From positions 5,051 to 69,050 of the forward strand of contig JAUCBJ010007707.1 of assembly GCA_032718475.1 (NCBI GenBank): DNA of 64,000 nucleotides, read 5' to 3'. The translations under genes were made by a program, and so were the position numbers. The DNA is from Nemertoderma westbladi. Lineage: Eukaryota > Animalia > Xenacoelomorpha. Positions 18,587 to 62,800 of the stretch are shown piece after piece (position 1 is the first letter of the stretch; each line of letters begins with the position of its first letter). Below the pieces are notes generated by a model. That model had not been told where the DNA came from. It made no database searches and saw only the letters and a program-made list of their open reading frames with translations.

Positions 18587-21109
18587 TTCGACTGACAGTA
18601 TTATATAATCTCTGACAATATTATTCACCTTCGGGGAATATTAACAGTTCCTTTAGGACGTGGCGCTCTATCTATATAAACAGAGTTATGACTTAAACTA
18701 CTCACAACGATATGGCTTAGTTATAATTCACATATATGTCGCATTCTTTAGGAAATGCTTCTTTATCAGTTTCACTCATACACAATGCTGCACAATACTG
18801 CACACTAATATGCACTGTACAATGCGGAAATGTAATATGCGGAAAGCACTGTACACTAAACCCTAAATTAGGTACAAGTACCGGTATAACAAATAATCAG
18901 TAGTTAAATATACTTGAACAGTTAAAAGAACCACGGCATCTGCTGGAGTGACCGAAGCACAAAATCTCCAGTCTTTACCTACGCCGAGCAGCCCTGATGT
19001 AGTACCGGGGTTAGTTTAACTATAACGGTATGTTATGTATAACAAGCACAATTACTGTAGGAATAAACTTGGGGACATGAATGTTGCGAATAATCGCATA
19101 AACTCTGAATAATAAATATTACGCTACCCGTACAGAATACTCAAACAAAATACAAACCAAACGCTGGCAGACTACTATCAAGCCTAAACAAACTACAGTA
19201 TGTGCAGATTCTGAAACTGTTAGTTAGTATGCGTTCTAACACGGTAGTACGACTTACTCTTTAAGAGGGGATTGACCTTACAGCTTATGGCTGCCCCAAC
19301 TTACTAACGGCACTTTATCAGACCAACTCTACACACGCAGCAATCCCTTCAGACCTAAAAATAGCTAGACAACAATCCAGCCTACAAATATTTGAGTAAT
19401 AACTATTACGGTACCTGAACAGACCACACAAACAAACACAGGCTAAAACACTGGCAGACTACGATCAAGCCTAAATAAACTACAGTATATGCAGACTCTG
19501 AAACTGTTAGTTAGTATGCGTTCTAACACGGTAGTACGACTTATTCTTTAAGAGGGGATTGACCTTACTGCATATGGCTGCCCCAACTTACTAACGGCAC
19601 TTTATCAGACAAACTCTACACACGCCGTAATCTCTCCAAACTCAACAACAGTCAGACAGCAGCTCAGCCTACAATTATCTGAACAATCTGAGCAGGGTCA
19701 CACGCCTTCTGCTCAATATTAGCCTACTAGTAAATAAAACCGACAGAAATAAGTAGAATCTCAAATAAAAATCAGGGCGGCCGTTCCCTGATTAAGTACC
19801 AAGACCTACCGGTATACAATAATCAAAATCGAATAATACTAATGTACCTATACAGCAGTACCGGTTCTGGCAGTTGGGCCTACTGACCTACAGAAGTACC
19901 GGTTACTACGGTATCTTGCAACCTTATTGCCTACTGCAATAAGATCGTAACTGTTACTGTTCGCGCTTTTGAAGACCTTTAGCAGTTTAACCTGCCAAAA
20001 TTTATATGTCTTTTAGTTAATTAACACACCTTTAGCATACGACAATATTTTATGCTAATAAACAAAACATTAGCCGAAGCCAGCCCATGCGCGATCATTC
20101 ACCCGATGGATCTACACCTGGGAGGCTGAATTCGGATGCTTAGATTTTATTATTGCAGTGTAAGGTTGCAGTGTAAGCCTACTGTATTATTCGATTGATC
20201 GCTAATATGTAATTTCTGACAGATATTATTAACTTTCGGGAAATATTAACAGTTCCTTTAGGACGTGGCGCTCTATCTATTTAAACAGAGCTAGGACTTA
20301 TACTAAACGCAACGATAAGGCTTATGATTAAAGTATAAGTCGCATTCTTTAGGAAATGCTTTGTTACCAGTCACATCACACTCACAATCATGCACACTAT
20401 TCTGCCGACCGTCAGTATATTTGATCACACATAAAGAGAACAGCAATTGACTCAGGTAGTGTCTACTAAATAACATTAGATTCAATACACACCACATTGA
20501 TATAAATCGCAATTGTTATATATAGCCTGTCTCTCTAACCTGTAGTGTATCAAGAAATTGGGAAATTTGGGTGATTTATCAATATTCTCCAAATGACAAT
20601 ATTTCATCAACAAATCGATACAATTAATAACTGACGGTAAATAGCAGTACAAACAATATGATTAGTGCAGTTAAATTAAGTGAGGTAACACCGCCGGTAA
20701 CAGTTATACTTTCTATAATCTAAGCAGTTTTTGCTAGAGTTGTTCCAAAAGCCGGTGTTATGGCGAAAAATGGGAACACAACAACAGAAACATGTGACTA
20801 CTACCACTATACGAGTATACCAAAAACCTTTATTCCACGAAGCCCCGTTCAACACAGAGGATGAGCATAGAGATAGGAAATTCAGTTCAGTAGCGCTGGG
20901 ATAGGTCGAAATCAACGCCTACGCAAATTCTATTGGCCGACACGAACAGCAAGGCTAAGGCAACCTCTCTAAGCTAGTTGGCCGATTAAACTGAGCCCAG
21001 ATATCTCCGTACAGCACATCAGCCAATAAGCTGGTAGCTTGCACTATTTTAGTTATAAATCCCTTTGAGAGTATTCTAGCGACTCAGTTATCCCACAAAA
21101 GCTTTTACA
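18586..21109 (-). mobile_element. Truncated, rearranged Bel/Pao copy (C'): 5' LTR, part of the leader, and a fragment of a different LTR subfamily
   Basis: 18840-21109 is the reverse complement of the LTR plus leader at 59846-62185. 18586-18810 matches the reverse complement of 42670-42892. Confidence 0.88.
19958..21109 (-). repeat. 5' LTR of copy C' (~1.15 kb)
   Basis: Same termini as the other LTRs (sense TGTAAAAGCTTTT...GCGCGAACA); highly similar to 59846-61053. Confidence 0.9.
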
Positions 21110-21412: not shown

Positions 21413-23189
21413 TGTTCGCGCTTTTAGACCTTTAGCAGTTTAACCTGCCAATTTTAGTTGTCCTCTTGTTTATAAATCGACTTTAGCCTATATCGATTAT
21501 TTAGTGCACTGAAGTTACATCAGCCGAAGCCAGTCTGTGCGCGATCATTCACCCACAGTTAAGGGAGACGGGATTCGGGAGCCTTGAGAGTTATTGCAAT
21601 GTAGACCTACTGTATTATTCGATTGATCGTTACTATATAATCTCTGACAATATATTTACTTTCGGGGAAATATTAACAGTTCCTTTTGGACGTGGCGTTT
21701 TAAGTATAAAACAGAGTTATGACTTATACTAATCACAACTAGATGGCCACAGAGTTTCATAAATAGCGCATTCTTTAGGAGATGCTTTATTATCCTTCAC
21801 ACTACTTCACACGACTTCACACTACTTCACACTACTGCGCACTAATCTGCCGACCGTCACTGAATTTATCATATATAAGGAAGATCGCAACTGACACTTG
21901 TAGGGATTATGAAATAGCATTTAATTCACACAAAAACCACTATAATTTAAGTCGCAGTTGCTACCGGTAACCTGTTCCTCTTACCTTCAGTAATCAAGAC
22001 GATTGGGGGTTTTATGATTATTTATCGGTATTCTCCAAATATATCAGCAATATACATCAATATAACAACAATTAATAACAGACCGTAAACAGAAGTAAAA
22101 TAATGCGGTGAACAGTCAGTATGTGTTACGTAATGCATTGGGTTCAGTAATGAGATACAGTACAGGCCACCAGAAACAGCAGATTTCATCCAATGTGATC
22201 ACATGTGAACACATTTGTTCAAGTCATCTGATTGGCAGGTTATGGCGTGTTATCTTCTAGATCACACAGCAGGAGGCTAACTTGCTGGGACCGAAAAAGG
22301 CTTTGTGTGCGGTGCGCCGTATGTCTGATATCAGGTGTATGAGAGAGCCCCCAGGGCGTAACATTGCGGACATGGGCTGTATTGGTAGAGAGAGAACTGC
22401 ATACAAGACCACATGGAATGTATGGGAGTGGATGGATATGTGGATGGAGGAGCCTAGACCATTGAATAATTAATTTAGTGCAGGGAGATGTCACGCCATT
22501 AGTCTGACACTGAGAGGGCACAGAGAAACACGAGAAGATGCCTTGAGATCACTAACTATAGGCCTGCCTACTAGACAGAGAGTTTCCAGATTACTAAGCG
22601 TTTCAAAAGTATTCAATTGCATCCTTTGGCGAAAAAATTTTGGTTGTTGCCAATTCAGATTATGTTCAATTGTCCCGTTCAACAACATTACATTACACTG
22701 GTACACATTTGATAAAATTTGTTCACAATTGTACAAATCTGCGTTTTCTGGTGGCCTGTACTGTAGGTGTCGGGTAATGTTACGAGATAATAGATTTACG
22801 TTCTTGTAATCAAAGCCATCTGATGTTTAGGCCAAAGTCTGAAACTTCCACACAGAAGTACAGAAGAATTCCAAGCCGGTTCTGAGGCTCAGAAAGGTAA
22901 ACAAAGACCGTAATGCATTGCGCGGGGTTCCATAGGCCTCTGTAAGACATAAAGTGAAAATCGCTCTGATTGGCTGAGCAGAAGAAAGAAGTTCCACGTC
23001 CACAAAGAATCAGCTGAGAGATTTCGTCATCTGGGCTCGGATTCCTCCCTTTCACGTAGTTGGATAGATTCAGGGCTATTTTAGAGTATTCTGCGCATTG
23101 CGGCAAAAATGACTTGTTATGTCCTCAAAAGCACCTACACTGCGCATTGCGGGAAAAAATGACTTATTATGTCCGCAAAAGCTTTTACA
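21413..23189 (-). repeat. 3' LTR of copy B (contains a MITE)
   Basis: Direct repeat of 35546-36717 apart from a ~608-bp insertion. Confidence 0.93.
22158..22763. mobile_element. Tc1/mariner-type MITE inserted in the 3' LTR
   Basis: TIRs cagtacaggccaccagaaa...tttctggtggcctgtactg with duplicated TA. The empty site gagaTAggtgtc is present in the 5' LTR (~36290). Confidence 0.92.
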
Positions 23190-27583: not shown

Positions 27584-29670
27584 TTATGTTGGGGAGTCCA
27601 TAGATGTTTGTTGGATTAGGGAGGTGGTCGTGGGAAGAGTATCTTGCCTTCCATAGTTTCCGGATAGTTCTCTGTCTCTTTCCAGTAAACATAAACGACC
27701 AACTGGGCGATTGAGTTGTTGTGTTTTGAATACAATTCCAGGTTTCTTAAAGTTACGTCGCATGACGACGAGTTCTACCGATCGCACTAAACCATTATCG
27801 GATATATGAGTCTCAATGATACGACCTGTCTGCCACCGCTTTAGTGGAAGATCTGATTCCACAATAAGGACCATGTCTCCGGCGCTGACGTTTTCTTGCT
27901 GCGCAAACCACTTTGTTCGAAGTTGTAGCGTAGGGAGATAATGTTTTTCAAAATGGTCAGCGAAACGACGGGATAATAACTGCATAAGTTACCAAGTTTG
28001 TCGGCAGTATTCATCTCCGTCCGTGATTTCCGATTGCGAGAGCATGGCTACAGGTTTCTTTCGTAGGAAATGCGCGGGTGTTAGCGCTTCTAGGGAGTCG
28101 GGACTCGATGAGACTGGCATAAGCGGTCTCTCGTTAAGATAGGCGGCGATTTCTTCCATTAACGTCCGCAAAAGTTCGTCGGTGAAATACGTGCAGCAAG
28201 GCACTATAAAGTGAAATGCGGTCTTCACGCTCCGTATTAATCTCTCCCAACTTCCTCCCCACCAAGGGGTGTCGGCGGCGTTGAAGGTCCAGCTAGATGC
28301 TGTTACCCTTAGCTGATCGTCCACCTGTCTTTGGTTCCAACCTTTCACGTAAGCTTTGATCTCATTATTGGCGCCAATGAAGTTCGTTCCCTTGTCGGAT
28401 CTCATCGTGTTGCTAGGTCCAAAACGAGCGATCTGTCGGCGTAAACTCAGTATGAAGCTGTTGGTAGATAGATCGTTCACCATATCTAGATGGATCGCTC
28501 TACAAGTCATACAGACAAAGATGACACACCATCGCTTGACTATAGTCCTAGCACGATATACCTCAATAGGGCCAAATAAATCCACACCAGTATTAGTAAA
28601 GGGTGGTTCATAGAAGCTTACTCGTTCCCTAGGTAATTCTGCCTCTCGCTGTGTTAAAGGCCTACTGAATGCTTTCCTACAGGGTATACAGTTCCTAAGA
28701 ACTTGGTTCAGAGCTCTACGGGGCTTATGGAAATAATAGCGAGTTCGAATTTCGCTAAGAACTCGTTCTCTACCAGCATGGTAAAGCCTACTGTGAACAT
28801 CTACAATCATCTTGATTTGTATTTCAAGATTTCTAATGATTATGGGAAACTTAGTGTCAAAGGATAATGGAGCATTAGTTAATCTCCCTCCGACACGTAT
28901 TAACCCATCTATCATTGTGCTAGAGAAACGATCCCTTAAGCGCATCTGTGGATTTCTCAACAACAGGAAATACTTATCGGAATCTTCATAGCATTGCAGG
29001 AGTCTCAGTATCTGCTTATTGGTTTCTTCATGCTCTTGGTAACTGATCTTCTCCGTCAGAAACCTATCCGACACTTTGTAAGTGGGCAGATCTTTAATAG
29101 CATGGACCTTTTCGGATATTGTTGGAGCGGTATCATTAGCGATCTTCGTCCTGGAATAGTGATGATGGAAACATCTTTTCAGATACACGACGGCCTTACA
29201 AAGCCAATTCCAGGAGCTATAATGATGTATTGCTCTCTGCAGGAGCGGTGAGAGTCCTTGAGCGATGTCTGGTGTTCCAGATTTCCAGTCTCTTTCTCTG
29301 ATTTCTACAACAGATTTGTTCATGGTAGGGGAGTTTAGATCCACAGCGTCATCTCCGGAGATGTTTAGTACAGACAGATCTATCACGGGTTTAAATAACT
29401 TTGATTTACTCGTCCGGGTTTTAGGTTTGACTTTCTCCGCTCCCTTGGCTTGTCTAATCTCAGCCGTGGTAAGATGAGGAGGCCATTCATCCTCTTCTTT
29501 ACTCAGGAAGTTGGGTCCACCTAACCAGTCTGGAGTATCTATCAGTTCTTGAGGAGTTGCTCCTCTAGAGGCGATGTCGGCTGGATTAATCGTCCCAGGG
29601 CAATGTCTCCATTGATCTACATTAGAGCGACTAAGTATAATGGCTACTCTGTTGGTAACGAAGACGCGGT
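27584..29670 (-). pseudogene. Pao pol 3' part: RNase H tail plus integrase, interrupted by one stop at 27989-27991
   Basis: FVTNRVAII..WRHCPGTINPADIASRG (RNase H end), HSRLYHAG..CIPC (HHCC), GVDLFGP, SDKGTNF, WGGSWERLIRSVK (DDE), LTPAHFL, YLPTLQLRTKW. Confidence 0.92.
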
Positions 29671-29848
29671 AGTTGCGCGATTCGTTTTTCCACTAAAGGT
29701 CGGTTATTTATAAAGTTGGGTTCTCGCCGTCTGAACGGAATACCAATCTCATAGTGACCTTCGTCTTTCAGATAACGAGTTGTCGTTTCCTGAATCTGCT
29801 TGGCTCTCTCTTCCTCGACGGACAAAGCTTTGTCGTAGGAATTAGGCT

Positions 29849-32800
29849 CTATGGCTTCTTGAGTAAAGAATCGTACGGCATGTTATCACGGATTTTATTG
29901 TTGTATCGATCTATCACTTCGTTTAATTCGTCATTATATGTGAATTGTCCGCCATATTGATCGATGAGATGGTACAAGTTTACTTGGTTTATCCAAGTTT
30001 GATTCTCGGTGAGGAGGTCGATTGTATTTTCCTCATCATATAATTGGTTAATATCGTCATTATCTGAGGAGTATGGTGTTCCCTCAGTTGTGGTTTCTCC
30101 CTCACTGATTTCTTCTTCCCATTCACTCACCTGATGTATCCTCTCATTAGGGAGTCTTTCCATTAGGGTTCTACGGGAAGGTCTAGTGAAGTACCAACCT
30201 ACTCTCATTCTTCCCGCGTAAGTTTGTAATGGTTGCGGTCGAGCAGGCCGTTTTTCTAATGTCTCCAGCGCTTCGTGCGCATTTTGGCCGATTAATATCT
30301 GCACCCCTGGGTAATCGGTGTTGAATCTAGGGATATCATGTTGCTGGGTAAAATGGTCTTCATCCCAGTTGTAAGGCTCCACTTGGCTAGTAGCAAAGGT
30401 CTTTATAGCCACCATTTTTACCGACCTTACGCTATGTTCTCCTAGTTCATCCTGGGGAGTGGACAACGCACCCACGTAGTAATCTGTAGCTACTGTGGAT
30501 TTCCAAACCTGCATAATTCCTGAAAGGTTCAACTTAGTTCGGAACTTAGGTTGTCCAGCAAAGATGTCTTCGGCTAGTTCTTTGTCAATGAAAGTACCTG
30601 TGCTGCCGGAGTCAAGAAGGGCGTTTACTATGAGGCTCTTCCCTACACCGTGGACTCTCAGTTGCACCACAGGGAATTCCCGGATTCCGACGGAGGAAGT
30701 TGGCGCTTTCCAAGATGGTTGTCGGTCCGGAATAGTCAGTCGAGGATCTTCATTGTCGGTTTCAGTCTCATACGTAAGTGCTCGATACACCGCGGTGTTT
30801 ATCATGTAACAGGATTCATTTTCGTCGGAGAATTCGTCTGTGTAGAATCCTTTCATCTTAGAGCTGTGGTCAGTGTTGTTCACATCACTGAATTGGACAT
30901 GTAGTTCGGGCTCACTTACCTGACTCGTGCAGGTTCTGTCAAATTCTGTGTGCAGCAAGATATGATGTTTCGCGCCACACTTAGCAGACCTAGCATCTGA
31001 GTAACAGGTCCGCCGTTGGTGTCCTCGTCTGAGACAATTATAACACAACCGCTTATCCCACATGACATCACGTCTATCCTTTAGGGATTTCTTCAAGAAT
31101 TCATCACACCCACTCAAGCGATGTGGCCTGTCACACAATGCACATTTGGGTTTGATGATACTTACATTAACCTGTGTTGTGTTGTGCACACTTGTTCTTT
31201 CCTCGGGCTTTCTTCCATGAATTCTCTTAGGAGACGTAGGAGGAGTTGTTACCTGTTCTATCCTGTCACTGGTTCGAGACTTAGATTTACTTACGTCTTT
31301 CCGAGTTTTATTGACATAATAAGATCTTTCGGTGTCTTTCCCGCTGTTCTCCTCGTATGAGGTTTGGCTTTCGCCGTCGTCTGTATAACACACTGGTGTT
31401 ACCTTTCTCCTAGAAACAGGTTTTTCACTCACCTGACTTTCCGGTGTCTTCTCTCTGGACTGCTTTAGGAGCTGTAATCTTACCTCTCCATTTAAAAATG
31501 ACATGAGGTCAGCCATGGTAGGGTCCCTTTGTTGCTGGTCGATCATATAAAGAACCTTTTTGTCCCAACGAGTGCCTACTCCACCCTTTGGCAAAGTAGA
31601 TGCTACGGCTCCAACAACCATAGAACTCTGATATTCTTGAGACTTACCTAGCCAATCCAGCTGTCTACAGATCTCCTGAATCTCATCGGAAAACTCTATA
31701 ATCCTGCTGCTAAGAAACTTTCGGGGCGCTACTAATTTCGCATACAAATACCTAGCTATGTTAGTCCTATTACCATACCTGATGTTTAGTGTATCCCAAA
31801 CTTGTCTTAATCCATCTGGATGTCCAATAAACTTTAACGCCATTAACTTGGGAGGTCCTTCCAGGCACTCGATGAGGAATCTAAGTTTCTCTCCGTTGGA
31901 TAGTACAGAGTTCTGTATGTTATCTTTATAATATTCATTAAAAGGTAACCATTTCATCTCATCTCCATTGAACTTGACGACCTCTCCCACCTTTACCGCT
32001 TGACGGGCTTCAGTTCTAGCCATTTGACGTGTAAAACTTTCTTGAGCCATCGTATTATTTAATATCGAGTTATCGGTATATAGATTTCTCGGATTATGAT
32101 CAGATCTGTATCTGGGATATCATTATCAAAGGGTTTATAATTACCCTTAATAGGGTTTACTATAGGAGTTTCTACTTCACTAGCAGTATAGATGTGTGTA
32201 GGCTCCACAGCTTGCGCATGAAATACTTCAGACCTAACAGGTTGACACATTGTTACAGGGGGTGGTGGTATACCCATTTGTATATTTACTAATTTATCGC
32301 GCTCTAAAGCGATACTTTGTTGCACTTCTTGTAACTCTAACCTACTCTCTCTCACTGTTCCCTTTAACTGCTGAACAGTCCCTTCCAACTCTCGAACCTG
32401 CTGGGTAGAAAGGCGTTTATGTTCTTCTAGCTGCCCAAGCAGGCGATTCATCCCCCGCTGTCCCTCGTCCACCCACTCAACCGCTGCGGCGGGAGCCGCC
32501 AACGTGGTAGCTGGGTGACACGTGGGGACAACGGGAGACAAGTCATTTATGTCTTGCTCGGCGTCCAGGAACGGGAGTGATTCAGGGGCTAGTCTACTGG
32601 GCACAGGTATTTTAGTGCTTTGGAAAGGGAATTTAGAGTTAGGTTCTGGAAGTACAGGTGTCTCTATCACAGAGGGAGTGGCTTCGAGGACAGGCCTAAT
32701 TATTTCAGGCTCATCTACTATAGTAGGGAGTCTTCTACTCTAATAATTTGGTCTGTAGGCTCAGGATTACTTAAATCTACACTAGCTAGTTGCATTCTCA

Positions 32801-34360: not shown

Positions 34361-35397
34361 GGTTTGAAAACAATAAAGCAGTAGTAAGTAAGTTGCATTG
34401 TCCAGATAAGAAAATACCACCGTCTGACGACTTATAGTCTTAGCTCTATAAGTACTACGTTATGTACCCGGAGTATCCTTACCTAGAGGTTAATTACCGA
34501 AGCCAACCAGAGTTAACGTGCCTATTAACCACGTTACAACACAAATATACTGCCTACACACTAAATTACTTTCGGAAAGCACTGTACTCTAAACCCTAAA
34601 TTAGGTACAAGTACTTATACAACAAATAACCAGCAGTTAAATATACTTGAACAGCCAAAAGAACCACGGTATCTGCTGGAGTGACCGGAGCACAAAATCA
34701 CCAGTCTGTACCTACACCAAGCAGCCATGATGTAGTACCGAGGTTAATTTAACTATTACGGTATGTATAACAAGCACAATTACTGTAGGAATAAACTTGG
34801 GGAATTGGAGGTTGCGAATACTCGCATAGACTCTGAATAATAAATATTACGCTACCCGTGCAGACTATTCAAATAAAATACAGACCAAATGCTGGCAGAC
34901 TACTGTCAAGCCTAAATAAACTACAGTATATGCAGACTCCGAAATGGTTAGTTAGTAGGCGTTCTAACTGAGTAGTACAACTTATTCTTTCGGGGGGGAT
35001 TTACCTTACAGCACTGGATGCCCCCACCTTCCTAACTAGCACTTTATCGGACAGACACTCTACACACACTGCAATCCCTTCAGACCTAACAACAGTTAGA
35101 CAACAATTCGGCCTACAAATTATTTGTACAATCTGAGCAGGCTTACACGCCTTCTGCTCAATATTACACTTACAGATAAATAAAACTGACAGATATAAGT
35201 AAAATCCCAATAAAAAACCAGGGCTGCAGTCCCCGATTAAATATCAAGACCTACTGGTATATAATTATCACAATCGAAATAATACTGCTGTACTTGCCTG
35301 TAAGTACCGGTTCGGGTGGTTAGGCAGTTAGGCCTACAACTTACCGTCCGACCGGTACATTCGACTTTATTGCCTACGGTGCAATAAAGAAACTAGT

Positions 35398-35550
35398 AAA
35401 ATCTATTATTGTTCTTACCAGAACAATAGACAAAATATTTATTGCCTACTGTGCAATCAAGAGTGTAAATCTAATATTGTTCTTACCAGAACAATAGGCA
35501 AAATATTTATTGCCTACTGTGCAATCAAGAGTGTAAATCTATTATTGTTC
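35398..35550 (-). repeat. ~67-bp tandem duplication of the LTR-end/PBS-position/hairpin module
   Basis: Sense gaaca-at(a/t)(a/t)tagattt occurs three times, separated by ...ttgcacagtaggcaataaatattttg(c/t)ctattgttctggtaa. Confidence 0.85.
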
Positions 35551-36717
35551 GCACGTTTAGACCTTTAGCAGTTTAACCTGCCAATTTTAGTTGTCCTCTT
35601 GTTTATAAATCGACTTTAGCCTATATCGATTATTTAGTGCACTGAAGTTACATCAGCCGAAGCCATAGTCTGTGCGCGATCATTCACCCACAGTTAAGGG
35701 AGACTGGATTCGGGAGTTTTGAGAGTTATTGCAATGTAGACCTACTGTATTATTCGATTGATCGTTACTATATAATCTCTGACAATATATTTACTTTCGG
35801 GGAAATATTAACAGTTCCTTTTGGACGTGGTGCTTTAAGTATAAAACAGAGTTATGACTTATACTAATCACAACTAGATGGCCACAGAGTTTCGTAAATA
35901 GCGCATTCTTTAGGAGATGCTTTATTATCCTTCACACTACTTCACACGACTTCACACTACTTCACACTACTGCGCACTAATCTGCCGACCGTCACTGAAT
36001 TTGATCATATATAAGGAAGATCGCAACTGACACTTGTAGGGATTATGAAATAGCATTTAATACACACAAAAACCACTATAATTTAAGTCGCAGTTGCTAC
36101 CGGTAACCTGTTCCTCTTACCTTCAGTAATCAAGAAGATTGGGGGTTTTATGATTATTTATCGGTATTCTCCAAATATATCAGCAATATACATAAATATA
36201 ACAACAATTAATAACAGACCGTAAACAGAAGTAAAATAATGTGGTGAACAGTCAGTATGTGTTACGTAATGCATTGGGTTCAGTAATGAGATAGGTGTCG
36301 GGTAATGTTATGAGATAATAGATTTACATTCTTGTAATCAAAGCCATCTGATGTTTAGGCCAAAGTCTGAAACTTCCACACAGAACTACAGAAGAATTCC
36401 AAGCCGGTTCCGAGGCTCAGAAAGGTAAACAAAAGACCGTAATGCATTGCGCGGGTTTCCATAGGCCTCTGTAAGACATAAAGTGAAAATCGCTCTGATT
36501 GGCTGAGCAGAACAAAGAAGTTCCACGTCCACAAAGAATCAGCTGAGAGATTTCGTCATCTGGGCTCGGATTCCTCCCTTTCACGTAGTTGGATAGATTC
36601 AGGGCTATTTAAGAGTATTCTGCGCATTGCGGCAAAAATGACTTGTTATGTCCTCAAAAGCACCTACACTGCGCATTGCGGGAAAAATGACTTGTTATGT
36701 CCGCAAAAGCTTTTACA
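35546..36717 (-). repeat. 5' LTR of copy B (1172 bp)
   Basis: TG..CA termini, adjacent TSD, direct repeat of 21413-23189. Confidence 0.93.
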
Positions 36718-41671: not shown

Positions 41672-43096
41672 TGTAAAAGCTTTTACTGAATTGTCCGGTT
41701 ATTTTGCCTTATTTTTCCCGTAAAGTACTCTGTAGTTGGTTTACCAGGCATAAAAAGGCCGTGTCCTTGCTGTACTGGTGTTTTAGCGGACATAAGAGCT
41801 ATTTCTTCTGTATTTGTACTTTAGAGGACATAATCCGTAATTCCGTGACGTAAAAGCTCGATACTCTTGAAAACAGTGTCGCTACTGTAAAAGCCTTTGC
41901 TGAATTGCCCCGTTATTTTTATTATCTTTTACATTAAAATACTCCGTAGTTGATTTAATAAGTGTAAGAGACCGTATTATTGCTGTATCTGTGTTTTTAG
42001 AGGATCTAAGACCTATTTCCTCTGTATGTGTACTGTGAAAGGCATATTTTATGATTCTATGGCAATTCGTGACGCAAAAGGGTGATAGCTACTCTTGAAC
42101 AGTAGTTACTATGACTACGGTTAACAGCTGACATTCATACGTGTTGATTTCCTTTGTTCTACGGCGTCTCTCAGCTCAGTCAGCCAATGAGAGCGTTTTT
42201 GTGGCTCCTTGTACAGAGAATTTCCGAGAAATGACGCAATGCCTATGTGCAGTGCTTACATTCAGTCTTGAGCCAAAGAAAGAACGGCTTAGAAATATTT
42301 TGTGCTGTACTGCTTTTTAGTCGTACACTGGTAGGTTTAATTATAAAGGGCATATATCCTTTAACAAACGGACTGACGGAACTGCATGCCTATGTGCACT
42401 GACATACCGGTACTGATTTGTTGTTTTATACTGCTATTTGCTGTCAGTTCTTCATAATATGGTTGATGAATTATTATATTTGGAATAACGATAAACAACC
42501 CCGAAACCCAATGTTCTTGATATACCGAAGGTAAGAGAGAAGGGTTACAGATAAACGATTGTGACTTATGTTAAAGTGGTTTGAAGTGAATCTAATGTTA
42601 TTTGATAGACCCTACATGAGTCAGCCTGTGTTCCTTTTATATGTGACTAAAATCAGTGAAGATTGGCAGATTAGTGTGCAGTATTGTGCAGCATAGTGTA
42701 TGAGTGAGTCTGTTAAAGAAGCAATTCCTAAAGAATGCGCCATATATGTGGATTATAATTAAGCCATATCGTTGCGAGTAGTTTAAGTCATAACTCTGTT
42801 TATGTAGATAAAGCGCCACGTCCTAAAGGAACTGTTAATATTACCGAAGGTGAATAATATTGTCAGAGATTATATAATACTGTCAGTCGAATAATACATT
42901 AGGCTTACATAGCAATAAAAATTAAACCGTCGAACCCAATCTCCCGGGAATTTCCAGCGGGTGAATGGTCGCGCACGGATTGGTTTCGACTAGTGTAGTG
43001 AATCAAATACTTGTCATAGACTAAAAAGCAGATTTATTATCTAGAAGACATTCTAATTTGGCGGGTTAAACTGCCAAAGGTCTGAAAGCGCGAACA
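41672..43096 (+). repeat. 5' LTR of copy A
   Basis: TGTAAAAGC...GCGCGAACA; direct repeat of 54387-55811. Confidence 0.96.
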
Positions 43097-43108
43097 TTAA
43101 AGGATATA
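43097..43108 (+). promoter_or_regulatory. Non-tRNA primer-binding-position sequence, complementary to LTR-internal 42353-42364
   Basis: ttaaaggatata versus tatatcctttaa. There is no TGG start. An equivalent pairing exists in the three other copies. Confidence 0.7.
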
Positions 43109-46996: not shown

Positions 46997-47223
46997 TATT
47001 TATATATATTTGTGCTAAAATTATACCGGTATTCGGTGATAAACCTAGTCTGTAATAATAGTTATATATACTATAAGCATACCGGTATTCTAATATATTA
47101 TATATATCACGCTACACTGAGTAGCAGTACCGGTGATTAATTACTAGGCTAGCAGTTAATACTGAGTTACTAGACTTGCTCAGACTGTAATACGGCAGTA
47201 GACATTCAACTGTACACATAAGC

Positions 47224-50200
47224 ATGTCTGACGCAAAGCAGAACCTGTCAGACAGTCTACTAGATACAACCGAGAGTGAAGTGACAGCAGAGAAACCGCA
47301 TAAGAGGGATGCCATTGACATCTATCTGTCAGACTATCAGCGTTTTTTGGGAGATGAAGAGTTGAGGAGAAGGCTAGAGGGACTTAGCCCTAATAGCGAA
47401 GGAGCCAAACTCGTGTTAGATGCGATTGATGTGGATAGGTTAGCGGCGAACCAAGCTAAATTCGATGAACAACTCCGCATCGCTAGAGAACAAGAAGAAC
47501 AAGTAAAGAAAAAACGTATAGAAGACAGAAAGATAGCAGCAGTGGCAGAGGCGGAAAGAAAAGCGACCTTGGCAGAAGCAGCGGCAGAGGCAAAAGCGGC
47601 AGCAGCAGAAGCAGAGGCAAAGGCAACAAAAGCAGCAGCAGAAGCAAAGGCAGAGGCAAAAGCGGCAGCGGCAAAAGCGGCAGCGGCAGAGGTAAAAGCG
47701 GCAGCGGTGGCGGAAGCAGAACGGAGAGCATCTGAAGAGGCAACCCAACTAGAGTTGGAAAATCTTCAAGAGAGGCAAGACAACTTCAATAAACAGTTAA
47801 CAGCTAGTAATATGCAGATGATGAGTCGATCTACTCCCAAAAGACAGGGATATACATCATCGGAGGAAGGCGATACCACCGATACTGAAGGCAAAGGAAA
47901 TAGATCTCGTCTAAGCAGACGTAAAAGAACATTCCACCGTCAGAAATTGCCTGATTTGCCTCCAGCTGTTAGAAGGCAACTAAATAACACCAACTTAGGT
48001 AGTACAGAGCCCACAGACCAAATAATTAAAATAGAAAGACTCCCTACTATAGTGGATGAGCCTGAAATAAGTAGGCCTGTTCTTGAAATCACCCCTACGG
48101 TAATAGATACATCTGTGCTCCCTGAAGCTACCTATAAATTCCCTCTACATAGCACTAAGCTACCTGTGCCCCGTAGGACTGCCCGAGAGACAGTTCAGGT
48201 CCTGGACCCCGAGCGAAATATTCCGAATTTGTCGCCCGTTGTCCCTTGTCTGCCCGCTACGACGTTGGCGGATCCCGTTTCGGCGGTTGATTGGGTAGAC
48301 GAGAGACGGCGGTGGATGGATATTCTCCTCGGAGAGATGAAGGAGAATCGGATACGCTCCTCCCAACAGGTCCGAGAGTTGGAAGGGACTGTCCAACATT
48401 TAAAGGGAACAGTGAGGGAAAGCAAGTTGGAGTTGCAAGAAGTGCAGCAAAATATCGCGCTAGAGCGCGATAAATTAGTAAGTTTACAAAAGGGTATACC
48501 ACCACCCTCTGTAACAATGTGTCAACCTGTTAGGTCTGAAGTATTGCATGCGCAAGGTGTGGAGCCTACACGCATATATACTGCTAGCGAAGTAGAAACT
48601 CCTATAGTGAACCCTATTAAGGGTAATTATAGACCTGTTGATAATGATATTCCCTATAGAACTGATCATAATCCGAGAAATTTATATACCGATAACTCGA
48701 TATTAAATAGCACGATGGCCCAAGAAAGTTTTACGCGTCAAATGGCTAGAACCGAAGCCCGGCAAGCGGTAAAGGTTGGAGAGATTGTCAAGTTCAATGG
48801 AGATGAGATGAAATGGTTACCTTTTAATGAATATTACAAAGATAACATACAGAACTCTGTACTATCTAATGGAGAGAAACTTAGATTCCTCATCGAATGT
48901 TTGGAAGGACCTCCCAAGTCAATGGCGTTAAAATTTATTGGACATCCAGATGGATTAAGACAAGTTTGGGATACACTAAACATCAGGTATGGTAATAGGA
49001 ATGACATAGCTGGGTATTTGTATGCAAAATTAATGGCGCCCCGAAAGTTTCTTAGCAGCGGGATTATAGAGTTTTCCGATGAGATTCAGGAGATCTGTAG
49101 ACAATTAGATTGGCTAGGTAAGTCTCATGAATACCAGAATTCTATGGTTGTAAGAGCCTTAGCATCTGCTTTGCCCAAGGGTGGAGTAGGTACACGCTGG
49201 GATAAGAAGGTGTTATATATGATGGAACAACAACGACGAGACCCTACCATGACTGATCTCATGTCATTCTTAGATAGAGAAGTGAAATTACAGCTCCTAA
49301 GGCAGTCCAGAGAGAAGACATTGGAAAACAAGGTAAGTGAGAAACCCGTTTCTAGGAGAAGGGTAACACCAGTATGTTATACCGACGACGGTGAAAGCCA
49401 AACCTCTCAAGGAGAGGACAGCGGGAAAGACACTGACAGACCTTATTATGTCAATAAAATGCCTAAAGAACAGGTAAGTAAATCCAAGTCTCGACCCAAT
49501 GACAGAAGGGAACCGATACAAAAAACCCCTCCTACGTCTCCTAAAGGAATTCAGGTGAGAAAGCCCGAGGAAAGAACAAGTGTGCACCACATAGCACAGG
49601 TTAAAGTAAGTAACATCAAGCCGAAATGTGTGCTGTGCGACGGGCCCCACCGTTTAAATGCGTGTGATAAATTCCTGAGGAAATCACTCGAGGATAGACG
49701 TGAAGTCATGTGGGATAAGCGGTTGTGTTATAATTGCCTCAGACGAGGACACCAACGGCGAACCTGTAACTCCGACGCAAGGTGTGCAAAGTGCGGCGCA
49801 AAACATCATATCTTGTTGCACACGGAATTCGAACGAAACAGCCCGAGTCAGGTAAGTGAGTCCGAACCACATGTCCAATTCAGTGATGTGAACGACACTG
49901 ATCAATCTGAGATGGAAGGATTCTATACGGACGAGTTCTCCGACCAAAACGAATCCTGTTACCTAATAAACACCACCGCAGTGTATCGAGCACTCGTGTA
50001 TGAGAAAGACACAGACGGCGACCTTACCTTAACTACTTCCGATCAACAACCATCTTGGAAAGCGCCAACTTCCAATATAGGGATCCGAGAGTTTCCTGTG
50101 GTGCAGGTAAGGGTGCACGGACCTAAACGGAGTTATGTAGTGAACGCCCTCCTGGACTCCGGCAGCACAGGAACATTCATCGATAAAGAGCTAGCCGAAG

Positions 50201-51369
50201 ATATATTTGCTGGACAGCCCAAGTTCCAAACTAAGCTCAACATGTCTGGCATTATGCAAGTTTGGAAATCTACAATAACAGCTGCTGATTATTATGTAGG
50301 CGCGTTGTCCACCCCACAAGACGAACTAGGAGAACACAGCATAAGGTCAGTGAAAATGGTGGCTATAAAGAACTTCGCTACTACTCAAGCAGACCTTTAT
50401 AATTGGGACGAGGATGAGAGCATACAACATCTTAACATACCTCGATTCCAGACTGATTATCCTGGAGTGCAAATACTCATCGGCCAAAACGCGCATGAGG
50501 CGCTGGAGACATTAGAGAAACGACCTGCTCAACCGCAGCCACTACAGACCTATGCGGTAAGAACTAGAGTAGGTTGGTACCTTACTGGACCTTCCCGTAG
50601 AACGCTCAGGGAAAGACTGCTTCAAGATCGTGTCTGCCAGGTGAGTGAATGGGAAGACGATACTAGTGAGGGAGACGACCCAACTGAGGGAACACCACAC
50701 TCCTCAGATAATGACAATCTTAGCTCCAATGTAGATCAATGGAGATATTGCCCCAAGAAGTTTAATCCAACGGACATCGCTTCCAGAGGAGCAACTCCTC
50801 AAGAACTGACAGATACTATAGACCGGTTAGGTGAACCCGACTTCCTGAGTAAGGAGAATGAATGGCCTCCCCATCTTACTCCGACTGAGATTAGACCAGC
50901 CAAGGGAGCGGAGAAAGTCGAACCTGAAACCCGGACGGGTGGATCGGAGTTATTTGAACCCGGGATAGATCTGTCGGTATTACATGTTGCCAGGGACGAC
51001 GCCGTGGATCTGGGCCTCCCCTCCGCGAGTGGATCCTTCATGAAGATCAGAGAGAGCGATTGGAGCTCTGGAACATCAGACGTCTCGCAGGGACTCTCAC
51101 CTCTCCTGCAGAGAGCGACGGACCACTATAGCTCCTGGAATCGGCTTTGTGACGCCGTCATATACTTTGAGCGATGTTTCTATCGTCACTATTCCAGGAC
51201 GAAGAGGAAACCTGGAATTGTATTCAGGATGCAGCGACTCAATCACCCAGTCGGTCGTTTGTGTTTATCGGAAGGGAATGGAGGACTCTCCGGAAACTGT
51301 GGAAGACAAGATTCTCTTCCCACGACCACCTCCCTAATCCTTCAAACATCTAGGGACTCCATAACGTAA
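47224..51369 (+). CDS. Pao Gag-protease polyprotein (1381 aa), fused in frame to RNase H-tail and integrase C-terminal remnants
   Basis: Ala/Glu/Lys helical repeat, KFNGDEMKW, CVLCDGPHRLNAC, CYNCLRRGHQRRTC, CAKCGAKHHILLH, ALLDSGS and WRYCPKKFNPTDIASRG. No YxDD and no DDE core. Confidence 0.93.
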   Translation: MSDAKQNLSDSLLDTTESEVTAEKPHKRDAIDIYLSDYQRFLGDEELRRRLEGLSPNSEGAKLVLDAIDVDRLAANQAKFDEQLRIAREQEEQVKKKRIEDRKIAAVAEAERKATLAEAAAEAKAAAAEAEAKATKAAAEAKAEAKAAAAKAAAAEVKAAAVAEAERRASEEATQLELENLQERQDNFNKQLTASNMQMMSRSTPKRQGYTSSEEGDTTDTEGKGNRSRLSRRKRTFHRQKLPDLPPAVRRQLNNTNLGSTEPTDQIIKIERLPTIVDEPEISRPVLEITPTVIDTSVLPEATYKFPLHSTKLPVPRRTARETVQVLDPERNIPNLSPVVPCLPATTLADPVSAVDWVDERRRWMDILLGEMKENRIRSSQQVRELEGTVQHLKGTVRESKLELQEVQQNIALERDKLVSLQKGIPPPSVTMCQPVRSEVLHAQGVEPTRIYTASEVETPIVNPIKGNYRPVDNDIPYRTDHNPRNLYTDNSILNSTMAQESFTRQMARTEARQAVKVGEIVKFNGDEMKWLPFNEYYKDNIQNSVLSNGEKLRFLIECLEGPPKSMALKFIGHPDGLRQVWDTLNIRYGNRNDIAGYLYAKLMAPRKFLSSGIIEFSDEIQEICRQLDWLGKSHEYQNSMVVRALASALPKGGVGTRWDKKVLYMMEQQRRDPTMTDLMSFLDREVKLQLLRQSREKTLENKVSEKPVSRRRVTPVCYTDDGESQTSQGEDSGKDTDRPYYVNKMPKEQVSKSKSRPNDRREPIQKTPPTSPKGIQVRKPEERTSVHHIAQVKVSNIKPKCVLCDGPHRLNACDKFLRKSLEDRREVMWDKRLCYNCLRRGHQRRTCNSDARCAKCGAKHHILLHTEFERNSPSQVSESEPHVQFSDVNDTDQSEMEGFYTDEFSDQNESCYLINTTAVYRALVYEKDTDGDLTLTTSDQQPSWKAPTSNIGIREFPVVQVRVHGPKRSYVVNALLDSGSTGTFIDKELAEDIFAGQPKFQTKLNMSGIMQVWKSTITAADYYVGALSTPQDELGEHSIRSVKMVAIKNFATTQADLYNWDEDESIQHLNIPRFQTDYPGVQILIGQNAHEALETLEKRPAQPQPLQTYAVRTRVGWYLTGPSRRTLRERLLQDRVCQVSEWEDDTSEGDDPTEGTPHSSDNDNLSSNVDQWRYCPKKFNPTDIASRGATPQELTDTIDRLGEPDFLSKENEWPPHLTPTEIRPAKGAEKVEPETRTGGSELFEPGIDLSVLHVARDDAVDLGLPSASGSFMKIRESDWSSGTSDVSQGLSPLLQRATDHYSSWNRLCDAVIYFERCFYRHYSRTKRKPGIVFRMQRLNHPVGRLCLSEGNGGLSGNCGRQDSLPTTTSLILQTSRDSIT

Positions 51370-53023: not shown

Positions 53024-54308
53024 ATGACGGAGTTGATGGAAGATGTTCTTGGTATCGGGGAGCGATATACTCTACTTTTGCAAGCGTTTGTTGATAGCTT
53101 AATACGCGGCGACGTTAGTCCAACTGCTGCGGAGGACGATGGTCGTTATATCGAACCGCCAATGTCCCAAGAGCAGCTCACGCGTGAGTTGGACTATAGA
53201 AAATTCGCTGCTCGATATACGCGGCGTAATGGTATGTATATGGGCTTCTTAACTACTGGTCATCCTATCGATTTACACAATACGGACTATGTCGACTATA
53301 TATCCTGCCCAGCGGAGTCGGAACCATAAACGGAAATTCGAATGCGAAAATTCTATTCGAAATCGACTCGAAAGAAAAGACACTTAAGAAACAAATGGAC
53401 GCGGTAACTCCAAAGTATATTTGGAATTCTTGATAGAAGCATTGTAACAACAAATAAATGTCACCCGCGTTTACCCTACCAGACGTGCGTCTTTGGTATT
53501 ATTACGATAAAAGCCCTAGACCCAAATAATAAACGGAAAGACATAAACATCCATGTAAACCGAAACTTGTTGACGTATCACCTATGCTCACTCGGCTCGA
53601 ACGATCCTGGAGTAAACCTACGATCAGAGTCCCGGAATACTCGGTCAAACCTCCTCATTCCTTAGTTGGACCTCAGACCTGCGATCCTGGTGGTGTCGCG
53701 GATCCTCGCGGACGGTATTCACTGTTCAAGATCTAGTGCTACCCTAACAATTAATCGGTAACACTCCGACAGTGATTTCTAGCTAGCCGCCCATCTTACC
53801 TAGCTGGATTATGACGCAGACACCTAATATCATTATCCAATCGTATGGTCGTCCACGTTTAACGCGATACAACCCCTCATCAAGGTGAAGGAGAGCGTTG
53901 TACGAAACGAGTTAAACGCTATTTTATAAAGATCAAAAGGGAAACCTGCGTTTGTTTAGATAAACGTAAGTTATAACAGTAAGTCCAATCGATAAACGAA
54001 TTGGCCTTATCTCAATTCGATTGGGAAATCCAGAATCTCTAAGAAGTTATCGAACTTGGACGATCCTATTCTCTGCGAGAGTTTTTGGATGAACGTATCC
54101 AGCTACGAGCGGAGGAAAATCAGCTCGAGGAGAAGCATATCGAAACGGCAGATACCCCGACCACAATCCTACACCTTCTGATGCAATCATATTGCACCCT
54201 TCACCCAGGAGTTATGGCCCTCCTAGTAAAGTGGCTCCCCCCAAAGAGAAAAAGACTCTTGCTAGCCTCAAAAAACTGCGTAAACGCCGTCTGCGTAAAA
54301 AAGACTAA
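53024..54308 (+). pseudogene. Remnant of the extra ORF in copy A
   Basis: The MTELMEDVLGIGERYTL... start and ...PSPRSYGPPSKVAPPKEKKTLASLKKLRKRRLRKKD* end match the copy B pieces; the middle is disrupted. Confidence 0.65.
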
Positions 54309-54386
54309 CTGTTTAGAGTATCTTTATGTTTTAGAAACTGTGATTTTTATATTTTATAGACTGAAAATCCCATTTTCTGGGAGCGG

Positions 54387-55811
54387 TGTAAAAGCTTTTA
54401 CTGAATTGTCCGGTTATTTTGCCTTATTTTTCCCGTAAAGTACTCTGTAGTTGGTTTACCAGGCATAAAAAGGCCGTGTCCTTGCTGTACTGGTGTTTTA
54501 GCGGACATAAGAGCTATTTCTTCTGTATTTGTACTTTAGAGGACATAATCCGTAATTCCGTGACGTAAAAGCTCGATACTCTTGAAAACAGTGTCGCTAC
54601 TGTAAAAGCCTTTGCTGAATTGCCCCGTTATTTTTATTATCTTTTACATTAAAATACTCCGTAGTTGATTTAATAAGTGTAAGAGACCGTATTATTGCTG
54701 TATCTGTGTTTTTAGAGGATCTAAGACCTATTTCCTCTGTATGTGTACTGTGAAAGGCATATTTTATGATTCTATGGCAATTCGTGACGCAAAAGGGTGA
54801 TAGCTACTCTTGAACAGTAGTTACTATGACTACGGTTAACAGCTGACATTCATACGTGTTGATTTCCTTTGTTCTACGGCGTCTCTCAGCTCAGTCAGCC
54901 AATGAGAGCGTTTTTGTGGCTCCTTGTACAGAGAATTTCCGAGAAATGACGCAATGCCTATGTGCAGTGCTTACATTCAGTCTTGAGCCAAAGAAAGAAC
55001 GGCTTAGAAATATTTTGTGCTGTACTGCTTTTTAGTCGTACACTGGTAGGTTTAATTATAAAGGGCATATATCCTTTAACAAACGGACTGACGGAACTGC
55101 ATGCCTATGTGCACTGACATACCGGTGCTGATTTGTTGTTTTATACTGCTATTTGCTGTCAGTTCTTCATAATATGGTTGATGAATTATTATATTTGGAA
55201 TAACGATAAACAACCCCGAAACCCAATGTTCTTGATATACCGAAGGTAAGAGAGAAGGGTTACAGATAAACGATTGTGACTTATGTTAAAGTGGTTTGAA
55301 GTGAATCTAATGTTATTTGATAGACCCTACATGAGTCAGCCTGTGTTCCTTTTATATGTGACTAAAATCAGTGAAGATTGGCAGATTAGTGTGCAGTATT
55401 GTGCAGCATAGTGTATGAGTGAGTCTGTTAAAGAAGCAATTCCTAAAGAATGCGCCATATATGTGGATTATAATTAAGCCATATCGTTGCGAGTAGTTTA
55501 AGTCATAACTCTGTTTATGTAGATAAAGCGCCACGTCCTAAAGGAACTGTTAATATTACCGAAGGTGAATAATATTGTCAGAGATTATATAATACTGTCA
55601 GTCGAATAATACATTAGGCTTACATAGCAATAAAAATTAAACCGTCGAACCCAATCTCCCGGGAATTTCCAGCGGGTGAATGGTCGCGCACGGATTGGTT
55701 TCGACTAGTGTAGTGAATCAAATACTTGTCATAGACTAAAAAGCAGATTTATTATCTAGAAGACATTCTAATTTGGCGGGTTAAACTGCCAAAGGTCTGA
55801 AAGCGCGAACA
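54387..55811 (+). repeat. 3' LTR of copy A
   Basis: Same length as the 5' LTR. I noticed only one difference by eye (ccggtActg vs ccggtGctg). Confidence 0.96.
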
Positions 55812-59845: not shown

Positions 59846-62800
59846 TGTAAAAGCTTTTGTGGGATAACTGATACGTTTGCCTTTGCTGGCCAGTTCCCCC
59901 CCAGTCGCTAGAATACTCTCAAAGGGATTTATAACTAAAATAGTGCAAGCTACCAGCTTATTGGCTGATGTGCTGTACGGAGATATCTGGGCTCAGTTTA
60001 ATCGGCCAACTAGCTTAGAGAGGTTGCCTTAGCCTTGCTGTTCGTGTCGGCCAATAGAATTTGCGTAGGCGTTGATTTCGACCTATCCCAGCGCTACTGA
60101 ACTGAATTTCCTATCTCTATGCTCATCCTCTGTGTTGAACGGGGCTTCGTGGAATAAGGGTTTTTGGTATACTCGTATAGTGGTAGTAGTCATATGATTT
60201 TATATGATTCTGTTGTTATGTTCCCATTTTTCGCCATAACACCGGCTTTTTGGGAAGAACTCTAGTAAAACTGCTTAAATTATCGAAAGTATAAACTGTT
60301 ACCTACTCACCGAATCTTAACGCATCTTAACATACTTACTTAATTTAACTGCATTAATCATATTGTTTGTACTGTTATTTTACTGTCAGTTATTAATTGT
60401 ACCTATTTGTTGATGGAAATATTGCTCTTTGGATAATACGGATAAATCACCCAAATTTCCCAATTTTCTTGATACACTACAGGTTAGAGAGGCGGGCTAT
60501 ATATAACAATTGCGATTTATATTAATGTGGTGTGTATTGAATCTAATGTTATTTAGCAGACCCTACATGAGTCAATTACTGCTCTCTTTATGTGTGATCA
60601 AATATACTGACGGTCGGCAGAATAGTGTGCATGATTGTGATTGGTAACAAAGTATTTCCTAAAGAATACGCTTTATACTTTAATCATAAGCAGTATCGTT
60701 GCGTTTAGTATAAGTCCTAGTTCTGTTTAAATAGATAGAGCGCCACGTCCTAAAGGAACTGTTAATATTTCCCGAAAGCCAATAATATCTGTCAGAAATT
60801 AATTATTAACGATCTATCGAATAATACAGTAAGTTTACACTGCAACCTTACACTGCAATAATAAAATTTAAGCATCCGAATTCAGCCTCCCGGGTGTAGA
60901 TCCATCGGGTGAATGATCGCGCATGGGCTGACTTCGGCTAATGTTTTGTGTATTAGCATAAAATATTGTCGTATGCTAAAGGTGTTTTAATTAACTAAAA
61001 GACATATAAATTTTGGCAGGTTAAACTGCTAAAGGTCTTCAAAAGCGCGAACAGTAACAGTTTATAATCTTATTGCAGTAGGCAATAGGGTTGCAAAATA
61101 CCGTAGTGACTGGTAAAACTGAACCGGTACTTTTGTAGGTCAGTAGGCCTAACTGTCATCACCGGTACCGGTACTGCTGTACAAGTACATTTAGTATTAT
61201 TCGATTTGATTATTGTATACCGGTAGGTCTTAGTACTTAATCAGGGACTGCAGCCCTGAATTTTTATTGAGATTCTACTTATTTCTGTCGGTTTTATTTC
61301 CTAGTAAGTTAATATTGAGCTGAAGACGTGTAAGTCTGCTCAGATTGTTCAAATAATTGTAGGCTGAACTGCTGTCTGACTGTTGTTGAGTTTGGAGAGA
61401 TTACGGCGTGTGTAGAGTTTGTCTGATAAAGTGCCGTTAGTAAGTTGGGGCAGCCATATGCGGTAAGGTCAATCCCCTCTTAAAGAATAAGTCGTACTAC
61501 CGTGTTAGAACGCATACTAACTAACAGTTTCAGAGTCTGCATATACTGTAGTTTATTTAGGCTTGATCGTAGTCTGCCAGTGTTTTAGCCTGTGTTTGTT
61601 TGTGTGGTCTGTTCAGATACCGTAATAGTTATTACTCAGATATTTGTAGGCTGGATTGTTGTCTAGCTATTCTTAGGCCTGAAGGGATTGCTGCGTGTGT
61701 AGAGTTGGTCTGATAAAGTGCCGTTAGTAAGTTGGGGCAGCCATATGCTGTAAGGTCAATCCCCTCTTAAAGAGTAAGTCGTACTACCGTGTTAGAACGC
61801 ATACTAACTAACAGTTTCAGAATCTGCACATACTGTAGTTTGTTTAGGCTTGATAGTAGTCTGCCAGCGTTTGGTTTGTATTTGTTTGAGTATTCTGTAC
61901 GGGTAGCGTAATATTTATTATTCAGAGTTTATGCGATTATTCGCAACATTCATGTCCCCAAGTTTATTCCTACAGTAATTGTGCTTGTTATACATACCGT
62001 TATAGTTAAACTAACCCCGGTACTACATCAGGGCTGCTCGGCGTAGGTAAAGACTGGAGATTTTGTGCTTCGGTCACTCCAGCAGATGCCGTGGTTCTTT
62101 TAACTGTTCAAGTATATTTAACTACTGATTATTTGTTATACCGGTACTTGTACCTAATTTAGGGTTTAGTGTACAGTGCTTTCCGAAGTAATTAGTGTAG
62201 GCAGTATATTTGTGTTGTAAAGTGGTTGATAGGCACATTCGTTAGCTCTATTAACTTCTGGGTAGGAACAATCCGTGATACATAACGTAGTACCTATAGC
62301 GATACGGTTATAGGTCGTCAGGCGGTGGTATTTTCCTATCTGGACAGTACAGTATATTTACTACTACTTATTATTTCAAATACCGTAGTACCCTGTCCGT
62401 TGTAATAACCAGAATTCTAACCCTTTGTTAGGCTGGTTTGTAGACTTCCTGTAAAATTACCCTAAAAATTTCGTACGTAATATTTTGTTGTGTTTAATTA
62501 GAGAATTAATCTCACCAATATCGTAAGTAATTTGTAGTATTAAGTAACTTAGGTAAATTAGAATTATCAGTTTTAGTGTCAAATAAATAGCACTTCACTG
62601 AGAGCGCACAGCTTCCGTGTAGTGACCCCCAGAAATAATAACATTTATTTCAAATATTGACAAAACCCCTTTTAAACGGGTATATATCTATTATAAATCA
62701 ACTCAAAAGATTTATAAATAGTAGGCCTGTCATACAACAACTAGGTCTCACTACCAGTTGGACTACTGCTTAAATAACGGTAATAAAGTACGTTAAAGTA

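Follow-up and report, generated by a model that had tools for sequence, protein, structure and literature searches.

A candidate self-primer within the LTRs of a Bel/Pao retrotransposon family of Nemertoderma westbladi

What primes minus-strand DNA synthesis in a Bel/Pao retrotransposon whose 5' LTR is followed by no tRNA-type site? The question is raised by a 64,000-nt stretch of Nemertoderma westbladi DNA (hereafter the window), which contains four related LTR elements, A, B, C and C'. Bel/Pao is one of the main animal LTR-retrotransposon groups, and its replication is described as 'poorly understood' and assumed to be tRNA-primed (PMC8742986). The first-pass annotation had reported that no TGG-type tRNA PBS follows the 5' LTRs, and we found none after any of the four. 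Neither tRNA genes nor Rfam families were found in the window.

The window elements and the complement between PBS and LTR

Element A (41672-55811, plus strand) presents both LTRs and a 5-bp TSD. Its 5' LTR (41672..43096, plus strand, 1425 nt, TG...CA) and its 3' LTR (54387..55811, plus strand), which is preceded by a short purine tract and followed by the TSD CTATC, exhibit a single difference in 1425 nt, so that the arrangement seen in element A has been replicated recently. Element B (36717-21413, minus strand) also has both LTRs, about 98% alike, and a 5-bp TSD (TGTGC); the 5' LTR (35546..36717, minus strand) measures 1172 nt, and the 3' LTR (21413..23189, minus strand) carries a 606-nt insertion (22158-22763) that, with its terminal inverted repeats and TA site, looks like a MITE. 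Element C is represented by a 5' LTR of 1208 nt (59846..61053, plus strand) and continues beyond the window, while C' has a 5' LTR of 1152 nt (19958..21109, minus strand) and is truncated near 18840. The 5' leader of the window elements is very long, about 3-4 kb; a 288-nt tandem pair lies in the leader of A (43362-43921) and of C' (19104-19687), with similar ones in B and C, and the leader of A also holds a 147-nt array (45326-46733). Elsewhere in the window, a 48-nt tandem array of about 324 copies with 91% matches (3008-18585) abuts an inverted A-type LTR fragment (18585-18813), and an apparently intron-less acyl-CoA synthetase frame of 618 aa (57085-58941), with only 35-39% identity to the best matches listed, is situated between elements A and C.

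The coding regions assign these elements to a superfamily. In A, the gag (DUF1759, zinc knuckles) and protease frame (47191..51369, plus strand) is joined to a C-terminal remnant of RNase H. In B, a gag (DUF1759) and protease frame (29849..32119, minus strand) is accompanied by a frame with the C-terminal part of RNase H and the integrase (27989..29692, minus strand), upstream of which the RT is missing. Searches for an RT, with six relatives as tblastn queries and with an active-site motif, yielded nothing anywhere in the window, and no integrase was found in element A. Both RT-less elements resume in the C-terminal RNase H at nearby points (A, 50725-50868; B, 29480-29692). The RNase H-integrase frame of B gave 613 protein matches, and most of the top 120 carry PF05380 and/or PF18701. 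A Cys-His cluster and an LLDSG motif, Pao hallmarks according to the accessible part of the Sinbad paper (PMC554778), are visible in the window proteins. A and B further exhibit the LTR features of Bel/Pao elements (paired TG...CA LTRs, 5-bp TSDs and a short purine tract), and B presents PR, the C-terminal part of RH and IN in this sequence, where Bel/Pao pol reads PR-RT-RH-IN, the RT being absent from the window. The scanned frames of the window elements gave no chromodomain match. As judged from protein homology, the window elements are filed as Bel/Pao, outside the typical ICTV profile of a semotivirus; with Bel/Pao-like proteins and no Ty3/gypsy chromovirus ancestry found, they are, on the same footing, not members of Tf1/sushi. 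Two further coding regions were observed: a 325-aa Cys/His-rich frame after the B integrase (23634-24611), with only a weak zinc-knuckle match (E 0.026), and, before gag in A, B and C, a long region with an Ala/Glu/Lys repeat (33017-34459 in B, 47191-48650 in A, 63208-63999 in C) that gave no Pfam match.

We then compared the bases following each 5' LTR with the LTR itself. The longest complement anchored at the first post-LTR base is exact in all four copies: 12 nt in A (PBS position 43097..43108, segment 42353..42364, plus strand), 14 nt in B (35532..35545 and 36315..36328, minus strand), 13 nt in C (61054..61066 and 60290..60302, plus strand) and 10 nt in C' (19948..19957 and 20697..20706, minus strand). 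The segment recurs in the 3' LTR of A (55068-55079, plus strand) and of B (22787-22800, minus strand), where the first base differs from that of the 5' copy. Dinucleotide shuffles of the LTR reached the observed length in 3 (A), 0 (B), 0 (C) and 14 (C') of 5000 trials, and a chance origin of the complements was rejected on these counts. In the controls, the flanks of the two 3' LTRs gave a complement of 5 nt and cross tests of PBS against LTR between A, B and C/C' gave 4-6 nt. The four exact reverse-complement pairs of the first-pass annotation are thus real, as is their geometry: pairing halts exactly at the LTR end, and the distance from partner end to LTR end, announced as ~730-770 nt, is 732 nt in A, 769 nt in B, 751 nt in C and 739 nt in C'. 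The partners occupy the same columns of the LTR alignment and are therefore homologous in position. In A and B, imperfect pairing continues for another 5-8 nt on the 5' side.

The pair of sites changes in concert. The annotation had described the subfamilies as largely unrelated in sequence yet still paired; the pairing is retained, but the sequences are diverged homologues, with PBS letters in common at 8 (A/B), 5 (A/C) and 7 (B/C) of 12 positions. The proposed covariation was confirmed: between subfamilies of the window the PBS varies at 7 of its 12 positions, always with a matching change in the partner. Between C and C', one base has been lost from both the primer segment and the PBS, a compensated indel that leaves both sites of C' one base shorter than those of C. 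Pairing is kept over all four copies as had been claimed, but C and C' are 93% alike and form one subfamily, so that the window gives three independent cases. In B, a 68-nt tandem unit in 2.7 copies (35366..35550, minus strand) repeats the LTR end and the PBS, yielding three PBS-like sites of which the second and third are slightly changed. No splice-junction primer with consensus sites was found in the window LTRs, the candidates in C adding only 2-3 letters to the contiguous match. The element is deeply covered by contigs from four sequencing runs, the family thus existing in many varied copies; these contigs are too short to link primer and PBS sites, and no splice joint from the donor-like site of the LTR appeared in them, the one run marked as possible RNA perhaps being DNA. 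None of the runs recorded as RNA was listed as containing the element. The conserved LTR-end pattern gave 0 matches in the viral and metagenome contigs searched.

tRNA-type sites and self-matches among Bel/Pao relatives

From an integrase alignment, 101 loci were fetched, 100 of them with an integrase match; the metagenome part comprises the best 80 of 456 confirmed stretches. The 5' LTR end could not be read for most loci, and 28 related elements, among them four near-duplicate pairs (L005/L006, L070/L077, L030/L034 and L053/L054), were tested. A relative was called tRNA-type when a TGG-type site, a motif taken from general knowledge, followed the LTR. Eight relatives presented such a site and no self-match (0-7 nt), 19 presented a self-match, and one (L057) fell into neither class at its guessed LTR end. 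The 19 self-matches measure 10-16 nt, start 0-6 nt after the LTR and were reached by at most 3 of 200 shuffles, counts that are optimistic for the 15 of them in which the LTR end was chosen by the match. In the subset with the LTR end fixed by two copies (n = 10), 6 are tRNA-type and the other four all self-match. Among classified relatives, self-match and tRNA-type site are mutually exclusive. The self-priming proposed by the first-pass annotation therefore finds backing in the covariation within the window and in the same geometry in 19 of 28 relatives, a geometry absent from the 8 tRNA-type ones.

Most relatives differ from the window elements in how the match is built. In 15 of the 19 it exists only across a GT-AG junction inside the LTR, and 4 (L007, L049, L061 and L085) are contiguous like the window elements. 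The loop measures 23-216 nt in the 19 relatives, versus 732-769 nt in the window. Of 17 relatives, 16 have a match of 10-13 nt, with exactly 11 nt in 11 of them, and the PBS starts with GT in 14, as it does in C and C'. L087 and L100 covary across the splice junction. Outside the 28, L055 presents a 15-nt split match, and L002 an 11-nt split match by eye that scored 6, its acceptor failing the filter, and that is not counted in the 19.

In a tree of the RNase H-integrase region, 16 classified self-matching relatives form one clade (UFBoot 98; SH-aLRT 99), which leaves out the 6 tRNA-type rows and the window element, the latter on a long branch; the self-matching L055 also lies outside it. A tree joining the window element with the 6 tRNA-type rows is 4.5 log units better than the free tree, with an AU p of 0.61. 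As the joined tree is not rejected, the phylogeny does not discriminate between inheritance from the self-matching clade and a separate origin. The independent origin put forward in the first-pass annotation for this family was not established, the trait being widespread in Bel/Pao relatives and the window element being left unplaced. Contiguous and split forms are intermixed in the tree. The sisters L049 and L053 (UFBoot 100) have the 3' primer part in common; in L049 the primer is contiguous (122-132, 268-285), and in L053 the same primer is split by a 168-nt intron (2140-2155, 2310-2330). This intermixing and this sisterhood point to intron loss or gain at the primer, in either direction.

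Some observations on the relatives stand apart. In the split relatives L087 (1000-1790), L100 (1000-1880), L086 (1563-3225) and L067 (2523-3360), a hexamer resembling a poly(A) signal is found near the acceptor, 1-24 nt below the end of the primer; it could determine whether splicing occurs at the 5' LTR or polyadenylation at the 3' LTR. Twenty contigs from the prokaryotic collection (L082-L101) encode Bel/Pao-type integrases, several as whole elements; they are probably for the most part host DNA binned by mistake, and L092 sits in a 1.4-Mb Wolbachia record.

How the primer would arise, and alternative readings

Considering that the pairing ends where minus-strand DNA must begin, takes the place of the tRNA site and covaries, we propose that the window elements are primed by their own RNA, in a Tf1-like, intron-less manner with a very long loop, and we give own-RNA priming, as judged from sequence comparison, a probability of about 0.8. 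Transcription would start 0-2 nt above the segment, and the 5' end of the RNA would fold back onto the PBS. A cut at the 3' end of the segment, likely by the RNase H of the RT, would then free a 3'-OH, from which minus-strand DNA would begin exactly at the LTR end, copy about 750 nt and jump to the 3' R. An AATAAA poly(A)-signal-like site (42914..42919 in A, plus strand; also in C and C', with AATAAC in the corresponding position of B), about 550 nt below the primer, would give ample R overlap. In the standard retroviral scheme, plus-strand synthesis copies the primer; on that scheme the PBS would be rewritten from the primer in each cycle, so that both sites would drift together, even via an indel as between C and C'. 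The RT would be supplied in trans, since the copies seen are without RT, and element A may have moved recently with borrowed enzymes. In most relatives the mechanism would need splicing to assemble the primer, and the window family looks like its intron-less counterpart.

Whether the primer is a short 5'-terminal stretch of the element RNA is a narrower point, to which we incline by a modest degree. It is favoured by the match length, 11 nt in the majority of relatives as in Tf1, and by the base A two positions above the paired segment, which fits a fixed 5' end. This A was noticed post hoc; it occurs in 16 of 22 elements, the highest count of 50 positions against a background of 24%, and in 11 of 17 after thinning of close kin. 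Promoter motifs argue the other way. A TATA-like match near -30 of the segment occurs in only 2 of 21 elements, and TATA at -30 was rejected as a start-site sign since it is not enriched. In A, a TATAAAG lies 9 nt above the paired segment, so that the transcription start would fall below the segment, and clear TATA boxes are situated 135-240 nt above the paired segment of three split relatives (L030, L087 and L100). The split relatives would, moreover, need a first exon of only about 5-11 nt.

These distant TATA boxes are what one would expect if the own RNA primes with the 3' end of a longer capped fragment, starting at least 100 nt upstream, or if the primer is supplied in trans by another transcript, which may be spliced or derive from a solo LTR. 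This is a possible reading, although we judge it distinctly less probable than a short 5'-terminal primer. It agrees with the imperfect upstream pairing in A and B, and with the CCAAT boxes that A, B and C carry 170-240 nt above the segment. A splice-donor-like site, a candidate at 42531..42536 in A (plus strand) and conserved in B (36120, minus strand), C (60483, plus strand) and C' (20539, minus strand), lies 157-194 nt below the primer end in the four copies, and an acceptor-like site lies just after the PBS in the window elements; together they could give a spliced RNA with the primer and without the PBS. However, the narrow range of match lengths and the A at -2 speak for a defined 5' end. 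Longer 5' ends also lose the helix in a fold model of all four window copies, although this is a weak test: the helix probability is about 0.9 if the RNA starts at the segment and 0-0.04 if it starts 60 nt above, and a start within 20-40 nt of the segment is favoured. Among 10 relatives, the helix persists in 4 whichever start is tried and is never formed in 1, and folding was rejected as a non-diagnostic start-site test because of this inconsistency. As for the donor-like site, the RNA that is copied must leave it unspliced, since otherwise the LTR would lose it; one may speculate that it serves a separate mRNA or poly(A) control.

The primer could instead be a host tRNA half or some other small RNA of the host, with the LTR segment as a mimic or decoy masking the PBS. 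Half-tRNA priming is known in copia lineages, according to the accessible part of PMC6317226. The GT start of the PBS in C, C' and most relatives is also in keeping with this idea, as it recalls what we presume to be a half-tRNA end. Nevertheless, A, B and C disagree at 7 of the 12 PBS positions, C' has an indel there, and the PBS of the relatives varies freely, in every case together with the LTR, so that one host RNA would be unable to fit all; nor would a decoy need to stop exactly at the LTR end. We therefore consider this explanation unlikely.

About as improbable, and if anything slightly more so, is a location of the segment in U3, where it would be transcribed only in its 3' LTR copy and the 3' part of the RNA would pair with the PBS and prime after a cut. 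The segment does start with TATA-like letters in A, C and C', the TATAAAG just above it in A would suit such a location, and the part of the LTR that begins with the segment and ends about 80 nt below it is poorly conserved (58-68%, compared with 74-77% over the last 650 nt). But the TATA-like letters are not kept in B, the split relatives need the junction to be transcribed and spliced, and the cut would remove the 3' R needed for strand transfer, so that a second RNA would be required. Finally, it is likewise very unlikely that the pairing has a purely structural role, in packaging, translation or poly(A) control, or is a side effect of template switching, with priming achieved otherwise: although priming is here deduced from sequence and B shows that LTR end and PBS can be duplicated by slippage, the exact abutment to the LTR end and the mutual exclusion with tRNA-type sites in relatives speak against it.

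Returning to own-RNA priming, a broader scenario may be sketched, which we hold only tentatively and regard as rather less probable than its negation. A large Bel/Pao branch would have replaced tRNA priming by a short capped self-primer, in convergence with Tf1; the majority of its members would build this primer by splicing a first exon of only 5-11 nt, and repeated intron loss would give ready-made primers, including that of the window family with its 750-nt loop. The pair would drift freely as the PBS is rewritten in each cycle, and priming would be tied to host splicing.

Comparison with known systems

Our full-text searches of freely accessible papers listed none on self-priming in Bel/Pao. 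In the parts of the texts that were accessible, a BEL/Pao survey of metazoan genomes makes no mention of primer, PBS, tRNA or priming (PMC3118150), the Sinbad paper none of PBS, tRNA or priming (PMC554778), and PMC3601003, PMC8220671, PMC5443660 and PMC2864245 contain nothing further on the priming of Bel/Pao elements. Should self-priming hold for a large part of Bel/Pao, the description of the family needs revision; the trait would then extend over Ty3/gypsy, copia and Bel/Pao, and annotation that relies on the PBS would overlook such elements. The presence of split and contiguous forms side by side, with sharp predictions of start site and primer length, makes the proposal testable by 5' end mapping.

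According to the ICTV profile (PMC8742986), Belpaoviridae/Semotivirus elements have LTRs of 0.2-1.2 kb and an 18-nt PBS for tRNA-Arg or tRNA-Gly. The window elements resemble this family in their TG...CA LTRs, 5-bp TSD, DUF1759 gag with zinc knuckles, Pao-type protease motif and order of RNase H then integrase, and their best protein matches are Pao-domain proteins. They differ from the profile by the absence of a tRNA-type PBS and, in A, by an LTR of 1.4 kb.

Self-priming is established for Tf1/sushi and has already been proposed outside this group. As far as the accessible part of PMC6317226 goes, the plant copia TAR lineage (Houba, Osr-1) and Tcn1 chromoviruses are predicted self-primers, by a test of at least 10 nt complementary to the 5' LTR and starting 0-5 nt after the LTR. 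The window elements were recognised by the same kind of test. The copia TAR and Tcn1 elements belong to other superfamilies and have plant hosts, and, in contrast with the relatives of the window elements, no split primers are described for them in that part of the source. Other non-tRNA arrangements are those of fungal GalEa (PMC5445492) and Skipper (PMC5006619), to judge from the portions of these two papers at hand.

The closest counterpart in mechanism is Tf1. In the accessible parts of the sources, the first 11 bases of its RNA anneal to the PBS and are cut off by RNase H, which cleaves between bases 11 and 12 (PMC7175516; bioRxiv 10.1101/2022.12.06.519325), and three duplexes around the PBS form a 'pretzel' (bioRxiv 10.1101/2022.12.06.519325). 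In the window, a conserved 9-mer (42966..42974 in A, plus strand; also in B, C and C') can pair at 8 of 9 positions with the last 9 nt of the LTR. Of 40 shuffles each, 2 (A), 12 (B), 2 (C) and 0 (C') attained this LTR-end duplex; for a post-PBS duplex the corresponding counts were 13, 17, 1 and 1. A local hairpin competes with such pairing. No compensatory changes were seen in these flanking duplexes in the four copies. The data thus support only in part possible counterparts of the Tf1-type flanking duplexes, strong in C and C' alone.

Like Tf1 and Tf2 of Schizosaccharomyces pombe and Tf1/sushi, the window elements combine the lack of a tRNA site with a PBS that pairs with an LTR-internal stretch of about 11 nt and with candidate flanking duplexes. 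Unlike the Tf1/sushi group of Ty3/gypsy chromoviruses, they have Bel/Pao proteins, a loop of 732-769 nt and a donor-like site inside that loop. Tf1 differs, too, from the relatives of the window elements, which would assemble the primer across an intron, and start and cleavage are here predicted from sequence. The class of mechanism being already known from Tf1, the window family is best seen as a putative intron-less, long-loop form of a self-priming trait that appears to be common in its Bel/Pao relatives.
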